Positions 1 through 11,088 of a DNA stretch of 11,088 nt are shown here, in pieces; the first letter of the stretch is position 1; each line of letters starts with the position of its first letter. This DNA is from a virus (lineage: Duplodnaviria > Heunggongvirae > Uroviricota > Caudoviricetes), in the IMG/VR virus record IMGVR_UViG_2744054872_000001, positions 1 to 11,088 of that record. One strand, written 5' to 3'. A program made the position numbers and the translations under genes. The notes beneath the pieces were generated by a model. The model saw only the letters and a list, made by a program, of their open reading frames with translations, had not been told where the DNA came from and did no database searches.

Positions 1-201
1 CTGATGGAAATGGAAGCCACGCAAGCACCTTAAAATCACCATCATACACTAAATCAGTAAGTTGGCAGCATTACCCAGATACCAGTCCCCCCATATCAAG
101 AACATTGGCTAACGTATAAGCGGCTTTTTGCTGGAATGATGGATCTTGTCCTGATTTAAGCCCAAACGCTCGACGTTGCGCTTCTGTATCATTCCAACCG
201 G

Positions 202-720
202 TTAAGCGAATTCCCAAAAACGCAAATCAACGATCGCTTCTTTGAATTCCGCGTCGTCTTCAGGTGGCAATGCTGCACGGCGCATCTCCAGCATTTCCAT
301 TGCCCAACCATCAAGCGGCACGATACGCCATTGATAAGGTACTCCCTCTACAGGCACCTCAATATCGTCAATGAACGGTTCCACTTCCAGGACCTGGATA
401 TCTTCAGCCAGAGCATTCATATCGCAATCGTAATAATGCTCTTTACCGCAATGTTTACAGGTGTAGGTGAATGTCTCGACCGGTGTTTCACGGGAGCCGG
501 TAAATATCCACCATAACGCGGTAATCCGGTCCTGCGCCGTCCATGTCAGGGGATCATGTTTCGCGGGTTCAGCCAGCAAGGCTTTTAAATACGCCGTTGT
601 CTGTTGTTCTTGTTCCTCCGGTGTTATCGAGTTGAAACGCATCGCATCAGCAATATTTGGCTGACGGAACTGGATCAATTCAGTTGGCCGCGATGGTAGC
701 GGGAAAAGGGGTAAAAGCAT
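202..720 (-). CDS. Hypothetical protein (172 aa) with a Cys cluster (C-x-H-C-G-x7-C-D); last gene of a three-gene operon
   Basis: ATG at 720-718, stop TAA at 204-202; 14 bp after the upstream gene; protein-like composition. Function not recognised. Confidence 0.55.
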   Translation of the reverse strand: MLLPLFPLPSRPTELIQFRQPNIADAMRFNSITPEEQEQQTTAYLKALLAEPAKHDPLTWTAQDRITALWWIFTGSRETPVETFTYTCKHCGKEHYYDCDMNALAEDIQVLEVEPFIDDIEVPVEGVPYQWRIVPLDGWAMEMLEMRRAALPPEDDAEFKEAIVDLRFWEFA

Positions 721-734
721 CCTTGCTCCTTAAT

Positions 735-1346
735 TCAAAGAGAAAAACTAAAGCCCAGAAGGGAAGCCAAAGAACTTGAGGATTGGTTAAACGTGCTGTG
801 CAATGCGAAGGTCATTGGGAATGACTTAAATTCCGTAACCTGATCCCGCGCATAGGTGACATCGCCGGTAGTGACCGGGAATACCGTCATCTCATTTTCC
901 AGTTTGGTTAAGCCGGAAGACAGCAACCGATAAATACGCACATTGAGCAAATATTTAGACGGTATATTCCCGGTACCGTCCGGATTGATCACCCGACTTT
1001 TTGCCGTCTTAAACCAGTCCAAAACGAGGCCATCAACGGTATCCCTGACCATCATTGTTATCTGCCCAGGCGAACGCTCTGTTGGTTGAAGGATATTCCC
1101 TCCGCCGATTTTAATCGTTTCATATTCGATGCTGTAATCGTGGTAGGTAATGTCTTTGGCAAAGAAGTCTGCCCCCTCCAGTCCATCAACTTCGACAGAG
1201 AACTGCCATCCTTGCGCGAACAGCATTTTGTTCATGATGATTGACGTCAGCTTACCAACTTCCCGCTCACCAACGCCGGAGCCAAATAATGTCGTCGTTA
1301 ATGCCGAAGATACATAAGACTTTACTGAAGCAACATTAAGCCCCAT
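735..1346 (-). CDS. Hypothetical protein (203 aa), middle gene of the three-gene operon
   Basis: ATG at 1346-1344 preceded on the minus strand by GAGGGGG; 10 bp after the upstream gene. No family recognised. Confidence 0.55.
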   Translation of the reverse strand: MGLNVASVKSYVSSALTTTLFGSGVGEREVGKLTSIIMNKMLFAQGWQFSVEVDGLEGADFFAKDITYHDYSIEYETIKIGGGNILQPTERSPGQITMMVRDTVDGLVLDWFKTAKSRVINPDGTGNIPSKYLLNVRIYRLLSSGLTKLENEMTVFPVTTGDVTYARDQVTEFKSFPMTFALHSTFNQSSSSLASLLGFSFSL

Positions 1347-1356
1347 ATCAGCCCCC

Positions 1357-1964
<608 letters not shown>

Positions 1965-2053
1965 ATGTCATTTGTCCATTGTGCCAACTGTTATTATGGA
2001 TATCATAATTCATACGAATCGCGCTGCTACAGGATGTATAGCAACCTTAATAA

Positions 2054-3313
2054 TTATTTGAATATATCAGTTATAGTTGGGTAATTATACATCTTAAGCT
2101 TATCTCTAAATTTCATAGAAAATATAGGGTCTACCTTACATCTGTGTAAGAGCTTTGCAATCCTTAGCTCCCTCTCATTCATAATATCTTTGTATTCGCT
2201 ATCAATACTTTCCTGAATTTGCTGATTCTCAACAGGAGACGGTTTAGTAATTTTATCCCATTGATAAGTTGGCTTCGTAGTGTAATTTAAACTATCATCA
2301 TTTTGGAGTAATGCCTCAAGACGAGACTTAGCATTTTCATATAGCATTCTATCTTGGGGCAACATACTTGCAACACGCATTTCCATTTCAATTTCCGATA
2401 CTATCATTTCAAGTTGACGTTTTTCCGTTTCAATAGCTAAAAGAAATGGAAATAGGGCTTCTTGCTTAATCATTTGACAATTCAAATTATTGTTTATGCC
2501 ACTAAGTAATTTTGTAAATGAGAACTTCTTTAAAGGCTGCTGATTTATAACACTCTGTCTAACTGGCATTGTGTAGTTCGGTGTTTTTTCAAGTGTTTTC
2601 TTCACTTGCTCTATAGCAACATTAGGAGTGTAGAAAACAGTCTTTGCTGGAATACGTAGCACCATAAACCCCTCCTTTATTGAATATTCATCACGAATAC
2701 GATCTCGCTCTATTTGTTCTGGGGATGAATGCCATGCTGCACCATCAATTTCTATAATTTGGCGTCCATTTACGACAAAATCAAAACGATAACGCTTATA
2801 GGGCACTTGCATTTCAAGCACTAAGTCAGGAGAAACTAACATTCCAGATTTAGGTTTAAGATTAAACTCTGCAACCATTTTACGAAGAAATGCCTCCTCA
2901 GCCGGAGATTCGCAACCTTTGCAAAATATATCAAGCCAGTTTTCTGCGTCAGCGTCAACAGTTTGCCACCATGCTAACAGTCCACGTCGGTGTCCATATA
3001 ATCGTTCATCTGACGGTTTTGTTAATGGCTTTGTTAACGGTTTAACTAAGGGTTCATTTAACGGCTTTAATAACGGCTTAAATAACGGCTTATTTAACGA
3101 ATTTAATAACGATTTATTTAATGGTTTGATTGACGGTCTATTTGACGACTCAATCGGTGGTTTAGATGATGATTTGTTTTTTTTATCAAAACCTACGATA
3201 GTTATATATGCTACATATAGCATCATGCCTGCAACAGGCCATACACATGGATAAATCACGTAACACAACAGTAATAGAACAATAGTCCCAAAAAATGTTA
3301 ACTTCTTCCGCAT
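2054..3313 (-). CDS. Membrane-anchored DUF559 (Vsr-like / restriction-endonuclease-fold) domain protein, 419 aa: two N-terminal hydrophobic helices, KPLx repeat linker, DUF559-like core, coiled-coil C-terminus
   Basis: N-terminus MRKK + two hydrophobic helices followed by DKKNK; linker KPLF-KPLL-KPLN-EPLV-KPLT-KPLT; core RFDFVVNGRQIIEIDGAAWH...RDRIRDEY...GFMVLRIP matches the DUF559 signature FDF...IE.DG..H...D..RD...G..VLR from memory. About 33% GC. Confidence 0.7.
   Translation of the reverse strand: MRKKLTFFGTIVLLLLCYVIYPCVWPVAGMMLYVAYITIVGFDKKNKSSSKPPIESSNRPSIKPLNKSLLNSLNKPLFKPLLKPLNEPLVKPLTKPLTKPSDERLYGHRRGLLAWWQTVDADAENWLDIFCKGCESPAEEAFLRKMVAEFNLKPKSGMLVSPDLVLEMQVPYKRYRFDFVVNGRQIIEIDGAAWHSSPEQIERDRIRDEYSIKEGFMVLRIPAKTVFYTPNVAIEQVKKTLEKTPNYTMPVRQSVINQQPLKKFSFTKLLSGINNNLNCQMIKQEALFPFLLAIETEKRQLEMIVSEIEMEMRVASMLPQDRMLYENAKSRLEALLQNDDSLNYTTKPTYQWDKITKPSPVENQQIQESIDSEYKDIMNERELRIAKLLHRCKVDPIFSMKFRDKLKMYNYPTITDIFK
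3013..3140. repeat. Imperfect 12-bp tandem repeat (about 9-10 units, consensus near TTWAATAACGGC) encoding the KPLx linker
   Basis: ACGG/ACGA/ATGG recurs at 3013, 3037, 3061, 3073, 3085, 3097, 3109, 3121, 3133, i.e. 12-bp period from 3061 onward; in frame with the 419-aa CDS. Confidence 0.7.
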
Positions 3314-3540
3314 ACCAAACTCTTTGCATCAATAAAGGGGACTGGCTTATATAATCAAATCACATGCCCGAAATAAAAGATGACCAACACCAACGGAAAT
3401 CACACTCTAAACTAATATACATTAACACTTAATATCGCCATCACAATTGATTGATTATGCTAATTTAAAAATGATATTTTTACAGAGAATATACAGCTCT
3501 ACAAGATGACTATTACACCAAAATTTAAAAAAATCATTGG

Positions 3541-3582
3541 CAACCTTGTAGAATTGATATTAACAATCGATTCTACGGGTTG
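3541..3582. promoter_or_regulatory. Palindrome copy B: CAACC-TT-GTAGAAT-N15-ATTCTAC-G-GGTTG; candidate operator for the 419-aa gene and/or weak terminator for the upstream operon
   Basis: Core GTAGAAT 3548-3554 and ATTCTAC 3570-3576 with a 15-nt spacer, identical spacing to copy A; on the minus strand the hairpin is followed by a U-rich tract (AUGAUUUUUUUAAAUUUU). Confidence 0.45.
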
Positions 3583-3628
3583 CCATTTGCTACATAGAGT
3601 GTAATAAGAGAGGATGGTTCAACGGAAA

Positions 3629-4168
3629 TTACCACCAGCTACTGGCTTTTTTCTCCCTTGCTTTACCTTCGCTTTGCAATAAATCCTTACTCCCTGAAGA
3701 GATGTTACGATTTGCATCAGCTTCAGACTGAATCACATCAGTTCTTGCAGCCCTTTCCTTTAGCTCCTGCTCAATGAAATCGTTTTCTCTCTTAACTCGA
3801 GCAGCTTTCGCTTGTAGCTCAAGCTTCATTTTCTCAAGTTCTAATTTACGAAGCTCATCTTCATAAGCCTGATTTCGCTTTTTCTCTGCGGTCAATTCAG
3901 CTTCACGCTTCGCTCTGCGCTCATTTTCCGCCGCTATACGAGCTTTCTCGCGGGCATTTGCAGCTGCCGCAGCCCTCTCTCTTCTTAAACGTTCAGCATT
4001 TTCTTGCTTGCGAATTTGCTCTAGTCTGGCATCCTCCAGCTGCTGTTCTCTTGCTCGACCTTCACTTTCTGCCTGGGCAATAGCAGCTATTTGACTCTGC
4101 AATGAATTAGCAAATACATTGCCTGTATTCAAAGCAGCCAAACATAAATAACAAATAATTTTCTTCAT
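3629..4168 (-). CDS. Secreted (Sec signal peptide) charged coiled-coil protein, 179 aa
   Basis: N-terminus MKKIICYLCLAALNTGNVFA|NS looks like a cleavable signal peptide; the rest is E/R/K/A-rich heptad-like sequence; starts 11 bp after the lipoprotein stop. Confidence 0.7.
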   Translation of the reverse strand: MKKIICYLCLAALNTGNVFANSLQSQIAAIAQAESEGRAREQQLEDARLEQIRKQENAERLRRERAAAAANAREKARIAAENERRAKREAELTAEKKRNQAYEDELRKLELEKMKLELQAKAARVKRENDFIEQELKERAARTDVIQSEADANRNISSGSKDLLQSEGKAREKKASSWW

Positions 4169-4179
4169 ATCTTATTGAG

Positions 4180-4701
4180 TTATTTTTTATCAGGACATGT
4201 AGCATTAGGTTGAATGCGCGTTTCGTTTTCTTTCGTTGAAATCAAAGCCGCGATTCCAGGGGCAAATTGGCAAGCTCTACCAACCTGTGTAGATGTATAG
4301 ACTTTAGTACCTTCCTTGTAAGTAAGAGATACACCTTCAACAATTGATTTATCACTTACCATAGAACCAGCAGCTGCGCCAAGAGCTCCACCGCCAGCAC
4401 CACCAGCAACTGCACCCAAGGTAGAAGTTCCTTTAATATTATATCCAGCAACACTACCAGCTACTGCACCGAGAACAGCACCGAAAGTCTGAGCTGCTTG
4501 TTTATTAGCTGTATTATCAACTTTTACTTTGGCTGGGAGAACAGAGATTATATTTACTACTCTTGTTTCTTGTTTTGAATTAAGTTGGGCTGTGTCGTAC
4601 ACATCTGCCGCATATTCAGCACCATTAGACTGACACCCTGAGAGAAAAATTGCAGAAACAACCATGACGCATAAAGAAGAAATTTTAGCCATTAGAATCA
4701 T
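4180..4701 (-). CDS. SlyB-like outer-membrane lipoprotein with glycine-zipper domain (about 170 aa from ATG 4701; alternative ATG 4692; the ORF-track start at 4752 is probably too long)
   Basis: Lipobox FLSGC after a K-containing n-region; Q at +2; GxxxG zipper AVLGAVAGSVAG...AVAGGAGGGALGAAAGS; architecture resembles SlyB/Pcp family. Confidence 0.7.
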   Translation of the reverse strand: MILMAKISSLCVMVVSAIFLSGCQSNGAEYAADVYDTAQLNSKQETRVVNIISVLPAKVKVDNTANKQAAQTFGAVLGAVAGSVAGYNIKGTSTLGAVAGGAGGGALGAAAGSMVSDKSIVEGVSLTYKEGTKVYTSTQVGRACQFAPGIAALISTKENETRIQPNATCPDKK

Positions 4702-4766
4702 CCCAGAAAAAAAATATAATCCAAGAAAATCTATCACATAAGCCAAATACAAACAAGATTAATCCT

Positions 4767-4815
4767 ATTGATGTATATCAATTATTATAAAAAATACGAT
4801 CTTCATTGCTGAAGC
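4767..4815 (-). promoter_or_regulatory. Candidate promoter for the lipoprotein/coiled-coil operon with an inverted repeat ATTGAT-GTAT-ATCAAT at the predicted start site
   Basis: Minus-strand TATAAT at 4789-4784; weak -35 around 4808-4813; inverted repeat 4767-4782 directly downstream. Sequence inspection only. Confidence 0.3.
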
Positions 4816-4982
4816 TGCGTTATATTAAGTCTAAAAAAATCAACTATCGACATTATATGCTCTGCTAATAATTTACACTTGATTTAGTTGAGTTGGTTTA
4901 ATATTGACACTAACTCACTCTCTAATTATATACAATTTCCAATTTTATATGCGCATATATGGAAACCTATACCAACAGCATG

Positions 4983-5030
4983 TTGCTCTAATAAATTTGT
5001 CTTTTTAAGTCACGAATGCTATCTTTTCGC
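4983..5030 (+). repeat. Conserved upstream box, copy 1 (TTGCTCTAATAAATTT-N-TTTT-TAAGT...GAAT...TTTCG)
   Basis: About 27 of 35 core positions identical to copy 2 at 6644-6692; lies about 300 bp upstream of the 73-aa ORF and first antirepressor gene. Confidence 0.5.
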
Positions 5031-5312
5031 ATCATATTGACCTTTTAATCGTTCAGGCTTATAGTTCCGCCGTCGTAGCAAATTCTGCGACCGGGTTTAG
5101 CAGCCTGAATGATTGTGCGGACAGCCGCAGATATCCGATATTGCGGTATTTTTGTGTCCGTAAAACCGCGTTACGCCCAAATTATGGTGGGACGTGATGG
5201 GGAGGCTTCGGCCTGCTGGTTTCACAATCGCCAGTCTGCTAACCCCGTCACGTCCTGCCACCTGTTTAGCAGCGGGTAGCAGGTTGTTAAACCTGATTGT
5301 GAGGCCGTAACT

Positions 5313-5534
5313 ATGGTTAATGCCAATCCTTACGCACGCCAAGAATTCATCTGGCGTTTCTATTCCTGTAAAAAACACCACTATCACTTCGTCATCGCAG
5401 CAACAGAAGACGAAGCACGCTCTCAATTGCCTGATGGCCCCTGCATTTTTACTGCCCGTTTTTCAACTAACTCGCGCAATTCACTTAGTTACTGGAACCT
5501 CCCCTTCTCTGCCGACGTTCAGGGGGATTTATGA
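5313..5534 (+). CDS. Small hypothetical protein (73 aa), translationally coupled to the downstream antirepressor
   Basis: GAGG 9-12 nt upstream of ATG 5313; stop TGA overlaps the ATG of the next gene (ATGA at 5531-5534); more protein-like than overlapping frames. Confidence 0.4.
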   Translation: MVNANPYARQEFIWRFYSCKKHHYHFVIAATEDEARSQLPDGPCIFTARFSTNSRNSLSYWNLPFSADVQGDL

Positions 5535-6565
5535 AAAAACCTCTCGTCACCCGTAATGAAATAGCCGAAGCGATCGCCCTGCATACAACCTGTATGCCGA
5601 CACGGGAGATCCCCGGCGCAATTGCCAACTATTTCATGATAACCAGACGTTTTTATACCCGAACAGATAAGGCTGTGATCAACAAGCTACTGATAGCCGA
5701 GATCAGGGATTATTTGATTGAACAAGGACGTCTACGTTACGCAACAGTGGCAGCAGAAATGAGAAAGGAGGCACACAGAGTGACCGGTAAAAATTTGAAT
5801 ATTGAAAAACCAGCACCTGTTACGTCAGCTACGCCAACACCAGCCGTGAATGTCATCCCCAACATCGGAGACACAATCGACAGCCAAACATTGTTGAAGA
5901 TGGTCAATGAGGCACGGAAATTATGTAGCGAAAAACCAGTTCGCAATAATGATTTCATTGCCAGAGTTAAGGATGAACTTGAAGGAGAAACCTACGAAAT
6001 TTTCGTAGGTCAAAAAAACGGCGCAGAAATAGATATTATAACAATGACCTACAAACAAGCCCTGCGAGTTGCCGCGCGCGAGTCAAAAGCGGTCCGCCGT
6101 TCGCTGATCGACAAACTGGAAGAATTACAGCAGGCAAACTCCCCTACCCCATCGATCCCCCAGACATTACCAGAAGCCCTACGCCTGGCTGCCGAGTTAG
6201 CAGAACAGAAAATGCAGTTGGAACAACAGCTGGTGGCCGCAGCCCCTAAAGTCGATTTTGCCGACCGGGTATCAGTGGCCAATGGAATCCTGATCGGGAA
6301 CTTTGCAAAGGTCGTTGGACTTAAGCAAAACGCCCTTTTCTCATGGTTGCGCCAGAACGGCATTCTCATGGCTTTTGGTGCGCGCAAAAACGTACCGCGC
6401 CAACAGTACATCAACGCCGGGTATTTCACGGTGAAAGAAGTGGTGTTGGATGATGAAAATGGCTACCAGATACGGCTGACGCCCCAATTAACGGGTAAAG
6501 GCCAGCAGTGGTTAACTCGCAAGCTACTTGATGCTGGTTTGTTAAAACCAGTAGCAATAGGTTAA
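5531..6565 (+). CDS. Phage antirepressor, KilA-C (ANT-type) C-terminal domain, 344 aa
   Basis: C-terminal block LPEALRLAAELAEQK...PKVDFADRV...GILIGNFAKVVGL...LFSWLRQNGIL...RKNVPRQQYINAGYF matches the KilA-C signature and is paralogous to the next gene; SD GGGGGA before ATG. Confidence 0.8.
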   Translation: MKKPLVTRNEIAEAIALHTTCMPTREIPGAIANYFMITRRFYTRTDKAVINKLLIAEIRDYLIEQGRLRYATVAAEMRKEAHRVTGKNLNIEKPAPVTSATPTPAVNVIPNIGDTIDSQTLLKMVNEARKLCSEKPVRNNDFIARVKDELEGETYEIFVGQKNGAEIDIITMTYKQALRVAARESKAVRRSLIDKLEELQQANSPTPSIPQTLPEALRLAAELAEQKMQLEQQLVAAAPKVDFADRVSVANGILIGNFAKVVGLKQNALFSWLRQNGILMAFGARKNVPRQQYINAGYFTVKEVVLDDENGYQIRLTPQLTGKGQQWLTRKLLDAGLLKPVAIG

Positions 6566-6576
6566 CAAAAGAAAAA

Positions 6577-6603
6577 ACCTGCCAGCAAACTGACAGGTTT
6601 CTG
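6577..6603 (+). terminator. Weak hairpin (8 of 9 bp stem, CAAA loop) after antirepressor 1; A-run upstream and short T-run downstream
   Basis: ACCUGCCAG-CAAA-CUGACAGGU with one C-A mismatch; only UUU follows on the plus strand. Confidence 0.3.
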
Positions 6604-6643
6604 AGCAGATCGACCAACCCGATCTGGATCGAGTTAGAAAAAT

Positions 6644-6692
6644 TTGCTCTAATAAATTTCGTTTTCTAAGTGCAAAGAATCACCATTTCGAG
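6644..6692 (+). repeat. Conserved upstream box, copy 2, about 40 bp before antirepressor 2; followed by inverted repeat AATCACCA-N8-TGGTGATT (6678-6701)
   Basis: Direct repeat of 4983-5030; its position relative to the 6729 start suggests promoter or operator. Confidence 0.5.
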
Positions 6693-6728
6693 CTGGTGAT
6701 TGAAGGTTGATGCAAATTTGGAGAAAAA

Positions 6729-7529
6729 ATGCAACAAACATTCAATGCGGATATGAATATATCAAACCTTCATCAAAATGTCGATCCTTCAACCACTCTT
6801 CCCGTTATTTGTGGTGTTGAAATTACGACCGACCGCGCTGGCCGTTACAACCTTAATGCTCTACACAGAGCGAGCGGACTCGGTGCCCATAAAGCGCCAG
6901 CTCAATGGCTAAGAACGCTGTCAGCTAAACAGCTCATCGAAGAGCTTGAAAAAGAAACTATGCAGAATTGCATAGTTTCGTTCGAAGGCCGTGGCGGCGG
7001 CACTTTTGCCCATGAATTGCTCGCAGTGGAGTACGCTGGTTGGATTTCTCCCGCGTTTCGGCTGAAGGTAAACCAGACATTTATCGACTATCGAGCTGGA
7101 AGATTACAACCTGCTATTCCGCAGAGTCTCCCTGAAGCTCTCCGTTTGGCTGCCGAACTGGCAGAGCAAAAGCAACGGCTGGAGCAAAAAATGCTTATGG
7201 ATGCACCTAAAGTCGAATTCGCCGAACGCGTTGCTACCGCCAGCGGGGTTCTAATCGGCAACTATGCCAAAGTGCTCGGCCTGGGCCAAAACTATCTCTT
7301 CACCTGGTTGCGTGATAACGGAATTCTGATCGCAACCGGTGAACGCAGGAACGTCCCCAAACAAGAATACATATCCCGTGGATATTTCACCCTTAAAGAA
7401 ACCGTGATCGATACAAGCAATGGAAGCAGGATTTCTTTCACGACTCGTATAACCGGCAAAGGTCAGCAGTGGCTGATGAAGCGATTGCTTGATGCTGGTG
7501 TGCTGGTACCTGTCGCGGCAACGCGCTAA
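6729..7529 (+). CDS. Phage antirepressor with KilA-N N-terminal domain and KilA-C C-terminal domain, 266 aa
   Basis: N-terminal YNLNALHRASGLG...GTFAHELLAVEYAGWISPAFRLKV resembles KilA-N; C-terminal block paralogous to 6130-6565; SD GGAG before ATG. Confidence 0.8.
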   Translation: MQQTFNADMNISNLHQNVDPSTTLPVICGVEITTDRAGRYNLNALHRASGLGAHKAPAQWLRTLSAKQLIEELEKETMQNCIVSFEGRGGGTFAHELLAVEYAGWISPAFRLKVNQTFIDYRAGRLQPAIPQSLPEALRLAAELAEQKQRLEQKMLMDAPKVEFAERVATASGVLIGNYAKVLGLGQNYLFTWLRDNGILIATGERRNVPKQEYISRGYFTLKETVIDTSNGSRISFTTRITGKGQQWLMKRLLDAGVLVPVAATR

Positions 7530-7558
7530 CAGACGTAGTAAGAACCACCAGCATTGTA

Positions 7559-8059
7559 ATGCTGGCTAAAGTCACTTTCCTGAGCTGTATAACGATGAGC
7601 GATTTTACTTTTTCTGGCTATGAATTGGCCTGCTTTGTAACACACTCCGGTCTATCCCGTAGCGCCGGGCATATCCTGTCGCAATGTGCAAATCTCGCGG
7701 CAACAACCAGTGAATACTTCATTCACAAGCCTCACCGCCTGATCGCGGCAGAAACTGGTTATAGCCAATCAACCGTCGTTCGTGCATTCCGTGAAGCTGT
7801 AAACAAAGGAATCCTGTCTGTAGAGATTGTTATCGGCGATCACCGTGAACGTCGCGCTAACCTGTACCGGTTTACACCATCCTTTTTGGCCTTCGCACAA
7901 CAAGCCAAAAATGCGCTGACTGAAAGCAAATTAAAGATCTCTTCAGCGGCAACCAAGGTTAAAGCTGTTATCGCTAAGACATTGGCTTTATTTAATTTTA
8001 TATCCACACCCCATGTCAAAATGATACCCCCTCCCCCTGTCAGGATGACGTGGCAATAA
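7559..8059 (+). CDS. Putative helix-turn-helix DNA-binding protein (166 aa; start may instead be ATG 7595)
   Basis: HTH-like segment AETGYSQSTVVRAFREAVNKGIL; ATG 7559 sits inside hairpin 7548-7565, so the start is uncertain. Confidence 0.4.
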   Translation: MLAKVTFLSCITMSDFTFSGYELACFVTHSGLSRSAGHILSQCANLAATTSEYFIHKPHRLIAAETGYSQSTVVRAFREAVNKGILSVEIVIGDHRERRANLYRFTPSFLAFAQQAKNALTESKLKISSAATKVKAVIAKTLALFNFISTPHVKMIPPPPVRMTWQ

Positions 8060-8403
8060 AGAATAAGAAGTCACAAGTTAAAAAAACAAAAAGATCAGTT
8101 TCCGGCGGTGCCGGAACGTCCAGACTCAAAAAATTGACTTCATGGATCGCTGAGGCAAAAGCAAAGGCTGACAATCTGCGGTTATCCCAAAAACGCGCTC
8201 AAAAACATGAGTTCAAGCAGAAAGTAGAGGCGGCTGCGCGGAAATATGCTTACCTGAAGAACAAGCGTTCGCCTGATATTGGCGGGATATCAAACTTCGA
8301 TAACCTACCGCATTGCATGACGGTAAACGAAGCTCTTAATGCGGTTTTAGCCAAAAATAAAGATAACGATCAATGGGGTATACCGGCGGGATTCAGAGGG
8401 TGA
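8050..8403 (+). CDS. Basic lysine-rich hypothetical protein (117 aa), GTG start overlapping the upstream stop
   Basis: ORF begins with GTG at 8050 and overlaps the previous ORF by 10 nt; K/R-rich; no family recognised. Confidence 0.3.
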   Translation: MAIKNKKSQVKKTKRSVSGGAGTSRLKKLTSWIAEAKAKADNLRLSQKRAQKHEFKQKVEAAARKYAYLKNKRSPDIGGISNFDNLPHCMTVNEALNAVLAKNKDNDQWGIPAGFRG

Positions 8404-8553
8404 TAGATTGCTCTAATCTGGAGTCACCTGGCGTTTTCAGTATGGATTTTCTTTGGCGCGGTCTGGCCATTAGGGATCATGTTTGCTGCAACGTTTCTTC
8501 TGATGTGGGTATTCACCCTTCCAGGTGATTTCTATAGAAAAAAAGCCAGACAT

Positions 8554-8562
8554 TGATACAAT
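8554..8562 (+). promoter_or_regulatory. Candidate hok mRNA promoter: extended -10 TGaTACAAT, predicted start near G8569/8570
   Basis: TG at 8554-8555 plus TACAAT 8557-8562; predicted start coincides with the 5' element GGGUGCUUGAGG (8569-8580), which is complementary to the 3' element at 10289-10301. Confidence 0.4.
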
Positions 8563-8631
8563 CGCTGCGGGTGCTTGAGGCTATCTGCTTCAGGCATTAC
8601 CCGAAAAGCAGATAGAAGAAAGCCCCAGATA

Positions 8632-8690
8632 ACATTACGCGTCCTGCAAGACGCTTAACATTAATCTGAGGCAATATCTATGCTTAGCAT
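8632..8690 (-). ncRNA. sok: Sok-like antisense RNA (approximate ends) complementary to the mok SD and start region
   Basis: Minus-strand TTGACC (8724-8719), 18-bp spacer, weak -10 TAATCT (8700-8695); predicted transcript covers mok SD 8668-8671 and ATG 8680-8682; ends in hairpin GCGUC-UUGCAG-GACGC (8656-8641). Position inferred from hok/sok family architecture. Confidence 0.5.
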
Positions 8691-8886
8691 ACGTAGATTA
8701 GCCTCTTACCGACCAAAAGGTCAAGGAGAAGCAGGCTATGAAGCAGCAAAAAGCGATGTTAATCGCTCTGATCGTCATCTGTTTAACCGTCATTGTGACG
8801 GCACTGGTAACGAGGAAAGACCTCTGCGAGGTACGAATCCGAACCGGCCAGACGGAGGTCACTGTCTTCACAGCCTACGAATCTGA
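8680..8886 (+). CDS. mok: Mok-like overlapping reading frame (68 aa) that overlaps hok in another frame
   Basis: ATG 8680 with GAGG 8 nt upstream; covers hok in a different frame and ends 7 nt before the hok stop, as expected for mok. Confidence 0.6.
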   Translation: MLSIRRLASYRPKGQGEAGYEAAKSDVNRSDRHLFNRHCDGTGNEERPLRGTNPNRPDGGHCLHSLRI

Positions 8887-8893
8887 AAGGTAA
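8738..8893 (+). CDS. hok: Hok/Gef-family type I membrane toxin, 51 aa: MKQQKAMLIALIVICLTVIVTALVTRKDLCEVRIRTGQTEVTVFTAYESER
   Basis: Own translation of 8738-8893; AAGGAG 10 nt upstream; single TM helix plus the conserved RKDLCEV...R.G...V.F.AYE motif; close to HokC/HokD as recalled, exact paralog not assigned. Confidence 0.9.
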   Translation: MKQQKAMLIALIVICLTVIVTALVTRKDLCEVRIRTGQTEVTVFTAYESER

Positions 8894-8915
8894 GAGACCT
8901 GGCGGGGAGAGATCC

Positions 8916-10253
8916 CATAAGCGCTAACTTAAGGGTTGAACCATCTGAAGAATGCGACGCCTCGGTGCCTCGTTAAGACGATGCCTCGCGTTCTTCAATT
9001 GCGTTTTGTAGGCTGTCAGGGATACTGTCCCACGAATGGCCACCTGTAAGCTCCAGATGACCATTTTTGTTATTCTCCACAACGAGTTAGTTCTTCTTTT
9101 CGGATCCGGCACTTCTGGGGGGGAAATCCAGCGATGGCTGGATTATGTCGTCAATTAAAAATGCGGCGAGTAGATTAGCAAATATCCACGCTTTCGCGAG
9201 TTCAGGTTCCTTTGCACGCAAAGCATCCAGGTGCAGCAAACTTTTGAGCCGCTTAAAAGCCAGTTCAATTTGCCATCGCAGACGGTAACAATCAGCCACT
9301 TGCTCTGCTGAATATTCATCTTCCGGTAATGATGTTAGCAATAGCACATGGCCCGCTGCTTCCAGCGTTTCCGCCTGAACTACTCGTCCTTTTCGACGAT
9401 TCTCGCTGAGCAGTCGGGTTTTACTGATTAATGCTTTTTCGGGAGGAAGTGATACGGCAATGAGACGTGCCGGAAAGGGAGCTCCGGCTTTTTTATTACC
9501 TGAATTGCCTATCATTACAGTGGTTTCACCGTTCTTACCGCAATCCAGCCCGCGCAGAAAACCCATCATGTCAAAGCGCATTCCTTCTGCAGTTAACCAG
9601 CGCAATCCTCGCCAGTGAACCCGGACGATATAATCAGCTTCTCCAAAAGCAAGTGAGCGGATACATTCGGGACGCGAACCGAATCCCCGGTCAGCAATGC
9701 GTATCTCGTCTGCCGTTTGCGCAAATCGGTCCAGCCGTTCAGCGTCTCTGCTGTCGGTTAGCTCAAAATCAGTGAACTGACAGGTATGAGGATCATATCC
9801 CATATGTAGTCGCCATTCAGCGCTGCCGCCCCCGGGCGCACTGATTGCTGTTCCATCGACAAGACGCAATCTCTTTCCGCTTGTACAACCCGTAACTGCG
9901 GCGCGTACAGCAAGTGTTTGTGCGGCAAGTATGCCAAACCAGTCGGCGGCATTCCGCAGCCGCTTCAGGAGAGCCACGTCAGATAATGTTGCAACGTCAT
10001 GGAGCTGAGCCCATGCAGTGACTTCACGTAATGACATCCCCCCGGGCCGTAAGCCAGCCCCAGACGTAGCAGAGTTGCAGCATCACGAATTTCGCGGCGG
10101 CGGGTTAGAGCCCCGGCATTACGTGCCGAAGTATCCAGTTCTTCGGGCTTACCAATATGGGCCAGAATTGCTGACCAGTTATCGTGAGAGTAATTCATCG
10201 GCACGTTAAATCATATCAGGCGTAATACCACAACCCTTAAGTTAGCGCTTATG
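8916..10253 (-). mobile_element. IS186 (IS4 family), complete 1338-bp copy with terminal inverted repeats and 10-bp target duplication GGAGAGATCC
   Basis: Left end CATAAGCGCTAACTTAAGGGTTG (8916-8938) and right end CAACCCTTAAGTTAGCGCTTATG (10231-10253) are reverse complements; direct repeats GGAGAGATCC at 8906-8915 and 10254-10263; encoded protein matches IS186 InsL as recalled. Confidence 0.9.
9087..10198 (-). pseudogene. insL: IS186 transposase InsL, reading frame broken by a 1-nt deficit in a G-run (plus-strand C6 at 10038-10043)
   Basis: N-terminal 54 aa MNYSHDNWSAILAHIGKPEELDTSARNAGALTRRREIRDAATLLRLGLAYGPGG (from ATG 10198) are in one frame and MSLREVTAWAQLHD... (9087-10037) in the +1 frame; one extra G would restore a 370-aa ORF. 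Could be a true mutation or a homopolymer sequencing error. Confidence 0.8.
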
Positions 10254-10311
10254 GGAGAGATCCCCGCCACTCTTCGTGTGTCAGGTATCCTCAATGCACC
10301 CTTTCCTCTCC

Positions 10312-10338
10312 AAATAAAAAAGCTCCCGAAGGAGCTTT
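10312..10338 (-). terminator. Rho-independent terminator (AGCUCC-UUCG-GGAGCU + UUUUUUAUUU on the minus strand); likely bidirectional between the hok 3' end and the convergent minus-strand gene
   Basis: Perfect 6-bp stem 10321-10336 with tetraloop; strong U-tract on the minus strand, weaker on the plus strand. Confidence 0.6.
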
Positions 10339-10357
10339 AAAATACAAGGGATGACTC

Positions 10358-10708
10358 TTAATCCCACTCAATCCAGTTGTAGACGATACGAAGTGACGGG
10401 CGCACAGCGGCAGTCACATCTTCGGTACTAAAGTCGATTGCATCACTGTAGATTTTGCAGTCCAACATTTCAATTGTTGTAGCAGCTTTTGTCACAGCGT
10501 TAACCCCGGAAGCTTTGGATTCAGGGGTAGCAGCCATCGTGATATCAACATAGTCCTTCGCCGCAATGCGATCCTTAATGAACTGAAGAATATCGCCTTC
10601 GATAGTCTCCACGCACTGGACCTGGATTTCCCCAGAGTTTCGAATTGCTCCGTGCTGGTTGAACTTCACACCATTCGGACCATAGTCCTCCACATCCTCT
10701 CGAGTCAT
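10358..10708 (-). CDS. Hypothetical protein (116 aa from ATG 10708); the frame stays open upstream into the IS3-family end, so this may be a 5'-truncated remnant
   Basis: Stop at 10358-10360 followed by the terminator; no SD before ATG 10708; the frame is open from 10709 to the IS boundary at 10785. Confidence 0.4.
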   Translation of the reverse strand: MTREDVEDYGPNGVKFNQHGAIRNSGEIQVQCVETIEGDILQFIKDRIAAKDYVDITMAATPESKASGVNAVTKAATTIEMLDCKIYSDAIDFSTEDVTAAVRPSLRIVYNWIEWD

Positions 10709-10784
10709 TTCAGGGATTTGCGACGTGCGAACCAGTACGCTGATATCTTCATGGCCTGCAAAAGTGAGCTGGAATTCAGAAGAT

Positions 10785-11088
10785 TGAACCGCCCCGGAAA
10801 TCCTGGAGACTAAACTCCCTGAGAAAGAGGTAAACAGGATGACTAAAAATACTCGTTTTTCCCCCGAAGTCCGTCAGCGGGCGATTCGTATGGTTCTGGA
10901 AAGTCAGGATGAATATGACTCACAGTGGGCGGCAATTTGTTCCATTGCCCCAAAGATTGGCTGTACGCCGGAGACTCTGCGTGTCTGGGTTCGCCAGCAT
11001 GAGCGGGATACCGGGGGCGGTGATGGTGGGCTCACCAGCGCTGAACGTCAGCGTCTGAAAGAGCTGGAACGTGAAAATCGTGAACTGC
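10785..11088 (+). mobile_element. Left end of an IS3-family element (IS629/IS1203/IS3411-like), running off the window
   Basis: Terminal TGAACCGCCCCGG... at 10785 followed 53 bp later by an OrfA start; protein [64 protein letters not shown]...ELERENREL matches IS3-family OrfA as recalled. Confidence 0.8.
10838..11088 (+). CDS. IS3-family transposase OrfA (HTH + leucine zipper), 3'-partial at window end
   Basis: ATG 10838 with AAGAGG 8 nt upstream; open to the end of the window. Confidence 0.85.

Follow-up and report, generated by a model that had tools for sequence, protein, structure and literature searches.

What does a structured, GC-richer leader do ahead of a phage antirepressor gene, and why is a small ORF of 73 amino acids set between the two? 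The locus that raises these questions lies in a stretch of caudoviral DNA (IMG/VR record IMGVR_UViG_2744054872_000001, positions 1 to 11,088), and this whole 11,088-nt stretch is referred to here as the window. An earlier note, made from the sequence alone, had suggested that the layout reflected regulated translational coupling or a cis-acting RNA element, and had named an Rfam search, RNA structure prediction, covariation across homologues and transcription across the region as ways of deciding the matter. Its description of the base composition was accurate, i.e., 5040-5312 has a GC content of 52% vs 28% in the intergenic region at 4753-5039.

The identity of the region was readily obtained by megablast of positions 4800-5700 against phage genomes. 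Phage P7 was 98.6% identical at the nucleotide level over 4984-5700 and phage P1 was 95% identical, also from 4984 onward, and at the aligned positions the records of both phages annotate the operator Op(c4)/Op51, the promoters P51a and P51b, a1, b1 and the 77-nt c4 RNA, followed downstream by a2, b2, icd (73 aa), ant1 and the nested ant2. Based on these alignments, the region is almost certainly the immI immunity operon of a P7-type P1-like phage-plasmid, and as judged from its sequence it holds no feature that contradicts this reading. The immI system is an already known and ordinary one, having been known since 1990 and being present in Rfam and in the annotations of P1 and P7. An Rfam scan of the window at the gathering threshold produced three matches (RF01695, RF03163 and RF01794), which are included with the other features below.

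4982-4998, + strand: C1 repressor operator Op51, or Op(c4), GTTGCTCTAATAAATTT, with one mismatch to ATTGCTCTAATAAATTT; aligns with protein_bind features of P7 and P1
4997-5025, + strand: C1-controlled promoter P51a (P2c4), -35 TTGTCT at 4997-5002 and -10 TATCTT at 5020-5025; mapped from the P1 annotation by alignment
5037-5065, + strand: promoter P51b (P1c4), TTGACC, 17-nt spacer, TATAGT; 10 of 12 consensus positions, identical to the annotated P1 promoter
5059-5111, + strand: c4-a1b1 motif (Rfam RF03163), two hairpins, the second of which holds a1 in its loop, with b1 following immediately on the 3' side
5072-5153, + strand: IsrK-like 5' leader segment, consisting of hairpin 1, hairpin 2 (a1 in its loop), the b1 spacer, a terminator-like hairpin and U5
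5097-5103, + strand: a1 target copy, TTAGCAG, complementary to a', in the loop of the second a1b1 hairpin
5111-5117, + strand: b1 target copy, GATTGTG, complementary to b'
5186-5262, + strand: mature C4 antisense RNA, 77 nt, a three-way junction; aligns with misc_RNA c4 of P7 and P1
5203-5214, + strand: helix P2 of C4, the AGGC-UUCG-GCCU tetraloop hairpin, from motif search and folding
5222-5229, + strand: b' recognition loop of C4, TCACAATC, in the 9-nt terminal loop of helix P3
5236-5242, + strand: a' recognition segment of C4, CTGCTAA, single-stranded in the junction
5266-5272, + strand: a2 target in the icd-ant mRNA, TTAGCAG
5295-5302, + strand: b2 target, GATTGTGA, overlapping the icd Shine-Dalgarno sequence (GAGG, 5301-5304)
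5313-5534, + strand: icd, an ATG ORF of 73 aa, cell-division inhibitor and upstream partner of a coupled pair
5522-5534, + strand: ant1 Shine-Dalgarno sequence GGGGGA (5522-5527) and the ATGA stop/start overlap (5531-5534)
5531-6565, + strand: ant1, antirepressor of 344 aa with a KilAC domain (Pfam PF03374, E 1.2e-30)
5780-6565, + strand: ant2, in-frame internal start, GTG here and ATG in P1 and P7, behind AGGAGG at 5766-5771; aligned to the annotated ant2 of P7 and P1
8569-8743: sok (RF01794, 114.3 bits), unrelated to the immI finding

The whole window is 100% identical to several IncY plasmids of E. coli (e.g., NZ_CP032890), and the identical 11-kb sequence is found in more than 10 plasmids from differing hosts and countries. 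The right part of the window has been replaced by hok/sok and other plasmid cargo, and the left end adjoins IS1. The neighbouring lytic replication gene, repL, has a frameshift caused by a 1-bp deletion, and because of this the host element may be defective for lytic growth and selection on immI may be relaxed in this lineage.

The centre of the leader is the gene for C4. The Rfam C4 model (RF01695) matched 5180-5265 with 69.8 bits vs a gathering score of 45 (E 2.8e-12, full model 1-87), and the c4-a1b1 model (RF03163) matched with 55.5 bits vs a gathering score of 46.7 (E 4.6e-12), so that the Rfam search proposed in the earlier note was answered by two families at E values of about 1e-12. 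Structure prediction was equally informative, as both the leader of 255 nt (-110.5 kcal/mol, z = -5.7) and the 77-nt core at 5186-5262 (-45.5 kcal/mol, z = -5.9) folded better than expected by chance from dinucleotide shuffles. The minimum free energy structure of the core was the expected three-way junction, with a UUCG loop, a 9-nt P3 loop and 7 unpaired nucleotides, CUGCUAA. Helix P2 of C4 often ends in UNCG, according to a passage in the supplement of Weinberg et al. 2010 (PMC2864571), the paper in which the C4 and a1b1 motifs are described. From 5' to 3' the leader presents two hairpins with a1, then b1, the terminator-like hairpin, C4, a2 and, over the icd Shine-Dalgarno sequence, b2.

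This arrangement changes the meaning of the two hairpins cited in the earlier note. The AGGC-TTCG-GCCT hairpin exists and is helix P2 of C4, although it had been placed at 5207-5218, 4 nt from its actual position. The motifs CTGCTAA and TTAGCAG, which had been read as the arms of a hairpin around 5237-5275 (a position off by 1 nt), are both there, but they are a' and a2, i.e., an antisense segment and its target. The intervening 23 nt belong to the closing helix of C4 (17 bp), of which they form the 3' strand, and a' and a2 therefore cannot form a simple hairpin in cis while C4 is folded. All helices of C4 were 100% paired in 28 distinct sequences of related loci and almost invariant among the P1-like loci, and hence gave no covariation. 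The internal helices are supported by the Rfam model and by L205, a prophage fragment of E. coli O157 with a divergent homologue, in which compensatory changes occur in helices P1, P2 and P3, consistent with Weinberg et al. 2010 (PMC2864571) and with that model. The only difference in C4 from P7 is G>A at 5192 in the closing stem, where a G·U pair has become A-U and pairing is kept.

The recognition sequences proved to be far more variable than the helices that carry them. The a' segment is the exact reverse complement of both a1 and a2 (7 nt), and b' is exactly complementary to b2 over 8 nt and to b1 over 7 nt. Neither the b'/b2 pair over the Shine-Dalgarno sequence nor the upstream a1 and b1 copies appear in the earlier note. 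Relatives were collected as 80 IMG/VR loci fetched through Icd, plus P1, P7 and D6, and in these 83 loci almost all variable columns of the leader fell within the recognition sets, with allele counts equal between sets. For a, columns 5099/5100 co-varied with 5239/5240 and 5268/5269, and for b, columns 5111-5116 co-varied with 5224-5229 and 5295-5300. When the 28 distinct sequences were aligned, the a'/a2 and b'/b2 pairings had 100% of cells paired and 8 pairs with double compensatory changes, and the a1/a' and b1/b' pairings gave the same two figures, vs 0-1 compensatory pairs in six slid controls for either pairing set. In all 28 sequences a1 co-varied with a', and for b1/b' compensatory double changes were found in 6 of the 7 pairs, again with 100% of cells paired. 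By these comparisons, selection for complementarity to C4 acts on the upstream copies as it does on the downstream targets, and the upstream copies are most likely a competing or decoy site that modulates the availability of C4, which we offer as a proposal.

A larger sample was obtained by a second scan anchored on the invariant helices of C4, which gave 66 distinct complete regions. The three-way register, i.e., agreement of the loops with both target sets, was perfect in 65 of them. Mismatched elements of the L011 type, whose b2 differs from b', may reflect assembly chimerism or a constitutively expressed Ant. There were two a-alleles (AG and GA) and six b-alleles (GATTGT, GTTAGT, ACTTAC, ACGAAT, ACTTGT and GTACAT), seen in 11 of the 12 combinations, and the predicted loop/target duplexes had about -23 kcal/mol when cognate vs -7 to -18 kcal/mol when non-cognate. 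The window has the P7 alleles (AGCAG; GATTGTG) at all six sites, every discriminating position being of the P7 type.

Upstream of the leader, the C1 operator (4982-4998), one of 2 such sites in the window vs 0.06 expected, extends into P51a, and the second promoter, P51b, lies downstream, with the operator and both promoters at the positions known from the P1 annotation. With start points taken from the promoter hexamers, the leader would extend to the icd ATG for approximately 241 nt from P51b and 281 nt from P51a, values that bracket the length of about 270 nt given previously. Transcription across c4-icd-ant is evident from RNA-seq of P1vir (PMC8201110), a result that holds for the family, P1vir not being this plasmid.

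The 73-aa ORF is icd, and, as had been noted, it has a good Shine-Dalgarno sequence (GAGG, 8 nt before the ATG) and a TGA that overlaps the antirepressor ATG. Its product is identical to P7 Icd at 71 of 73 residues and to P1 Icd at 69 of 73, and matched NCBIfam NF033153 with 52.6 bits vs a cut-off of 25; a Pfam search with the 73-aa protein gave no match. Both the ORF and the ATGA overlap were intact in 81 of the 83 related loci, which together with the register described above provided the conservation across homologues that had been sought. In D6, c4 and icd are kept and a TGATG overlap leads into a non-homologous, Roi-like antirepressor. The translational coupling inferred in the earlier note was well placed, being documented for icd-ant1 of P1 (Riedel 1993 and Heinrich 1994, as cited in passages of PMC8198154 and PMC8546580). 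Passages of PMC8201110 and PMC8198154 also state that icd is needed for ant expression and inhibits cell division.

While the parts, their order and their complementarity can be read in the window, the way in which they would work is drawn from its 98.6% identity to P7 and from the P1/P7 literature. Passages of PMC8546580 describe C4 as a trans-acting RNA that represses Ant synthesis and, after Citron & Schuster 1992, as a processed 77-base RNA. Its precursor is a substrate of RNase P (Hartmann 1995, as cited in a passage of PMC2190699), and full repression of ant requires both C1 at the operator and C4, according to a passage of PMC8198154. By analogy, transcripts in the window would start at P51a, under the control of C1, and at P51b, and C4 would be excised from the leader, its 5' end being cut by RNase P. 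Its a' and b' would bind the a2 and b2 targets on immI transcripts, thereby occluding the icd ribosome-binding site, and C4 would do so in trans, on its own transcript as well as on those of a superinfecting phage. If icd were not translated, Ant1 and Ant2 would not be made, with the loss of translational coupling contributing to this outcome, and Rho-dependent termination inside the untranslated icd would probably contribute to ant shut-off as well. The C1 repressor would then stay active, and the prophage would be immune to superinfecting phage of the same C4 specificity. Biere et al. reportedly found in 1992 that binding of C4 blocks icd translation and so leads to Rho-dependent termination within icd. 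Repression of an icd-ant reporter by C4 from a second replicon has been reported for P1 and P7.

Comparison with the two classical phages places the window close to P7. The immI operon of P7 (AF503408, 50853-52448) has every element in the same order and with the same spacing, and is identical at all a and b specificity positions. Over 4984-5540 the two differ by four substitutions. Of these, 5001 A>C and 5192 G>A lie ahead of icd, whereas the other two alter Icd, 5332 G>A giving C7Y and 5527 G>A giving G72D, the latter within the ant1 Shine-Dalgarno sequence. Downstream, Ant2 has the GTG start in place of ATG. Ant1 matches its P7 counterpart at 322 of 348 aligned columns and lacks 4 aa within a patch where the two proteins diverge. 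Private to the window are 5001 A>C in the -35 of P51a, 5192 G>A in the closing stem of C4, and Icd C7Y. Upstream of 4984 the similarity to P7 falls below the megablast threshold, and blastn aligned 3630-8417 with the upf50.0/upf50.5 region of P7 at about 90%. The immI operon of P1 (AF234172, 48140-49731) has the same architecture and mechanism with 95% identity, but its alleles (a, GACAG; b, GTTAGT) differ from those of the window in all three copies. This allele difference between P1 and P7 is the basis of their heteroimmunity, with a cross duplex of about -11 kcal/mol vs -23.6 kcal/mol for the cognate one.

The immI reading had to be weighed against others, the most obvious being the cis-acting element of the earlier note. 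A riboswitch, thermosensor or attenuator that gates icd/ant translation without any trans-acting RNA would be in keeping with a whole leader of 255 nt that folds so much better than its shuffles, and with the terminator-like hairpin at 5124-5153. However, the best Rfam matches are an antisense gene, C4, and its target motif, and riboswitch families gave no match in the Rfam scans at either gathering or relaxed thresholds. Variation is also confined to loop and target positions that co-vary 30-140 nt apart while the helices are constant, which is the signature of intermolecular recognition, and C4 is documented, in a passage of PMC8546580, as a trans-acting immunity factor. We consider a purely cis-acting leader very improbable: an RNA element in the leader does control antirepressor expression, as had been supposed, but it is the gene for the 77-nt C4, processed from the leader and acting in trans. 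Scarcely any credence can be given to the original annotation of c4 as a small protein repressor, despite the ATG ORF of 56 aa (5109-5279) that spans the C4 region and the old P1 GenBank record X15639, which still has c4 as a CDS. The start codon is ATA or AAA in 12 of the 28 distinct relatives, and a 1-nt indel at 5162 shifts the frame such that the ORF has 39, 56, 66 or 69 aa or is open; on these two grounds the protein was rejected. The substitutions, moreover, are compensatory at the RNA level, and the genome annotations of P1 and P7 give c4 as misc_RNA.

It could also be argued that the cassette is a relic that looks intact but lies idle in a defective phage-plasmid, where a lysis-lysogeny switch is no longer controlled, and the repL frameshift, the replacement of the right part by hok/sok and plasmid cargo, and the left end at IS1 are all compatible with that. 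Yet all parts of immI are intact and in register, the private change in C4 at 5192 preserves pairing, more than 10 plasmids from varied hosts and countries carry the 11-kb sequence with 100% identity, and any C1-controlled element needs repression of Ant and Icd for stable carriage. We consider an idle relic improbable.

The 5' segment of the immI leader resembles IsrK. When the threshold was relaxed, the Rfam model of isrK (RF01394) matched 5072-5153 at 43.7 bits (E 4e-8), below its gathering score of 50, and the segment is accordingly not assigned to the family. Alignment to this model and folding identified the terminator-like hairpin, which has 10 bp at 5124-5147 followed by an A and U5 (5149-5153), although a simple terminator scan of 4900-5600 called none. 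In relatives the resemblance is stronger, with isrK above the gathering score in L205 and in a second locus, L206 (53.8 bits), and at 46.5 bits in D6. The isrK match of L205 is followed immediately on its 3' side by a strong match to C4 (80.7 bits). IsrK has reportedly been linked to seqA of phage P4 by Hershko-Shalev et al. in 2016.

The Salmonella prophage Gifsy-1 offers a parallel, in its isrK-orf45-anrP locus (PMC4825925). Its promoter-proximal short RNA has two hairpins, as the a1b1 segment of immI does, and ends in an intrinsic terminator. IsrK is a terminated sRNA of 77 nt, the read-through mRNA comes with a processed, stable RNA of about 80 nt downstream (STnc1160), and the stop codon of the small leader ORF overlaps the antirepressor start (AUGA), with translational coupling demonstrated (PMC4825925). 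The two differ in that the leader ORF of Gifsy-1 is orf45, not icd, and overlaps the processed RNA, and in that the short IsrK acts in trans to activate translation of the read-through mRNA, whereas a short a1b1 RNA in P1 and P7 is only hypothetical. In the satellite phage P4, CI RNA is likewise an antisense RNA that arises from a leader by processing; it belongs to the same Rfam clan (CL00128), and seqA, seqB and seqC are complementary sites up- and downstream on the same transcript, with RNase P taking part in processing (discussion of PMC4825925). The outcome in P4 is premature transcription termination of the replication operon, unlike the occlusion of the ribosome-binding site of an antirepressor-coupled leader ORF. 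The immI region of phage P22 (sar, ant, mnt, arc) also has an antirepressor gene checked by a small antisense RNA. Its sar RNA, however, is a cis-antisense RNA from the opposite strand, is unrelated in sequence to C4, and is not known to be accompanied by a coupled leader ORF of the icd type.

Competition by a1/b1 was proposed by Citron & Schuster 1990, as summarised in a passage of the supplement of PMC2864571. Because the architecture of immI is the same as that of the Gifsy-1 isrK locus, it is a plausible hypothesis that elements of the P1/P7 type also release a short, a1/b1-bearing RNA that would compete for C4. Two linked claims can be framed around it, which we advance tentatively as a pair, leaning against them rather than towards them. 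The first is that 5072-5153 (about 80 nt) may be released as a terminated, IsrK-type a1/b1 sRNA, an anti-antisense decoy for C4; the second is that the a and b modules may combine into at least 11 immunity specificities found in nature, mutually orthogonal and in three-way register. Both may have been anticipated in part by Citron & Schuster 1990 and Hershko-Shalev et al. 2016. If the decoy reading were true, immI would be a three-RNA circuit of decoy, antisense and target, homologous to the Gifsy-1 isrK-orf45-anrP switch. By the second claim, the three-way register would be kept even though a single module swap needs at least two separate DNA exchanges.

For the window itself, the result is mainly one of annotation. 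Annotation of the NZ_CP032890 type lists only two proteins here, a “host cell division inhibitor Icd-like protein” and a “phage antirepressor KilAC domain-containing protein”, and, as in the PGAP and PLSDB tables, the C4 RNA, the six recognition sites, the operator and the promoters are unannotated on many AMR-associated P1-like plasmids. The immI specificity (P7-type a, P7-type b) predicts which P1-like phage-plasmids would superinfect, or coexist with, this one. Beyond this one element, the allele survey suggests that the natural repertoire of orthogonal antisense/target pairs is larger than the classical P1/P7 pair, and such a repertoire could be of interest for work both on the incompatibility of phage-plasmids and on synthetic RNA regulators.

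The recognition segments of the C4 antisense RNA and their targets in immI, the immunity operon, proved to be combinatorial. Across the related loci L004-L204, two alleles of the a segment and six of the b segment occur in 11 of the 12 possible combinations, and in 65 of the 66 distinct regions the upstream copies (a1/b1), the C4 segments (a'/b') and the targets near the icd ribosome-binding site (a2/b2) are in perfect three-way register (sites 5097-5117, 5222-5242 and 5266-5302 of the window). Along the DNA the modules run a1-b1…b'-a'…a2-b2, an order that means that the exchange of a single module takes at least two separate conversion tracts. Two markers lying between b1 and b', at 5124 and 5133, track the a-type and not the b-type.

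The sole out-of-register element among the 66 regions, at about position 141 of its locus, is in L011 (IMGVR_UViG_2565956613_000015), which has ACGAAT in b1 and b' and GTTAGT in b2. Judged from these alleles, its C4 would be mismatched to the target at the icd ribosome-binding site, and L011, on a contig of 4.9 kb, is a derepressed recombinant that arose naturally or else a chimera of the assembly.

The cassette has also been kept in a different setting. Phage D6 (1803-2992 of its locus) retains a1b1-C4-icd with a leader 87% identical and an Icd identical in 38 of 77 aligned columns, and there a TGATG overlap joins it to a Roi-like, non-homologous antirepressor. Such coupling suggests that the module of RNA plus leader ORF is portable between antirepressor genes.

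Upstream of C4, the leader at 5072-5153 matches IsrK, an sRNA of Salmonella Gifsy-1, at 43.7 bits, below the gathering score of 50, and the match takes in a terminator-like hairpin (5124-5147) followed by U5. In an E. coli O157 prophage fragment (L205) the isrK model scores above threshold at 514-593, immediately 5' of C4 at 622-709. An outer helix around the hairpin, GCGGACA (5117-5123) with TGTCCGT (5155-5161), is conserved in both the window and the fragment.

In a set of 59 distinct relatives, three substitutions occur in this plasmid lineage alone:

5001, A>C, in the -35 element of P51a, the C1-controlled upstream promoter, adjoining the C1 operator
5192, G>A, in the closing stem of C4, converting a G·U pair to A-U
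5332, C7Y in Icd

The start codon of Ant2 (5780-5782) is GTG in the window, a codon shared by 10 of 81 related loci, whereas P1 and P7 have ATG. Compared with P7, Ant1 diverges over a short stretch at 6010-6040 that includes a 4-aa deletion (VGQKNGAEIDIIT versus VTPMDKKKGGADQVVIV).

Compared with P7, the window carries an insertion of about 1.65 kb (1976-3629) that separates the tail-tube genes from the upf50.0 homologue. A type I toxin-antitoxin system of the hok/sok kind (8569-8893; sok, RF01794, 114.3 bits) is found shortly past 8417, where similarity to the compared P7 stretch ends, close to that P7 locus's own end. These two stretches carry:

2054-3313, minus strand, 419-aa DUF559/REase_MTES_1575-like protein, within the insertion
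8738-8893, hokD, as annotated

Homologues of P7 upf50.0 (DUF5384) and upf50.5 (a TraT-like/glycine-zipper lipoprotein) occupy 3629-4752, the slot that in P1 holds the sim superimmunity genes; they diverge from P7 more than immI does, and megablast similarity to P7 begins only at 4984. The plasmid annotation places an IS1 family transposase against the left edge of the window (1-20).

Downstream of the antirepressor genes is a second C1 operator, the counterpart of Op53/Op(rep):

6643-6659, TTTGCTCTAATAAATTT, upstream of kilA (6729-7529)

Beyond kilA, the lytic replication gene repL (7559-8403) has suffered a 1-bp deletion after 8008, in which a C-run is shortened from CCCCC to CCCC, and is thereby broken into two ORFs (7559-8059 and 8050-8403). 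Since repL is split, and more than ten plasmids share this sequence at 100% identity, the lineage may, on this sequence evidence, be defective for lytic replication.
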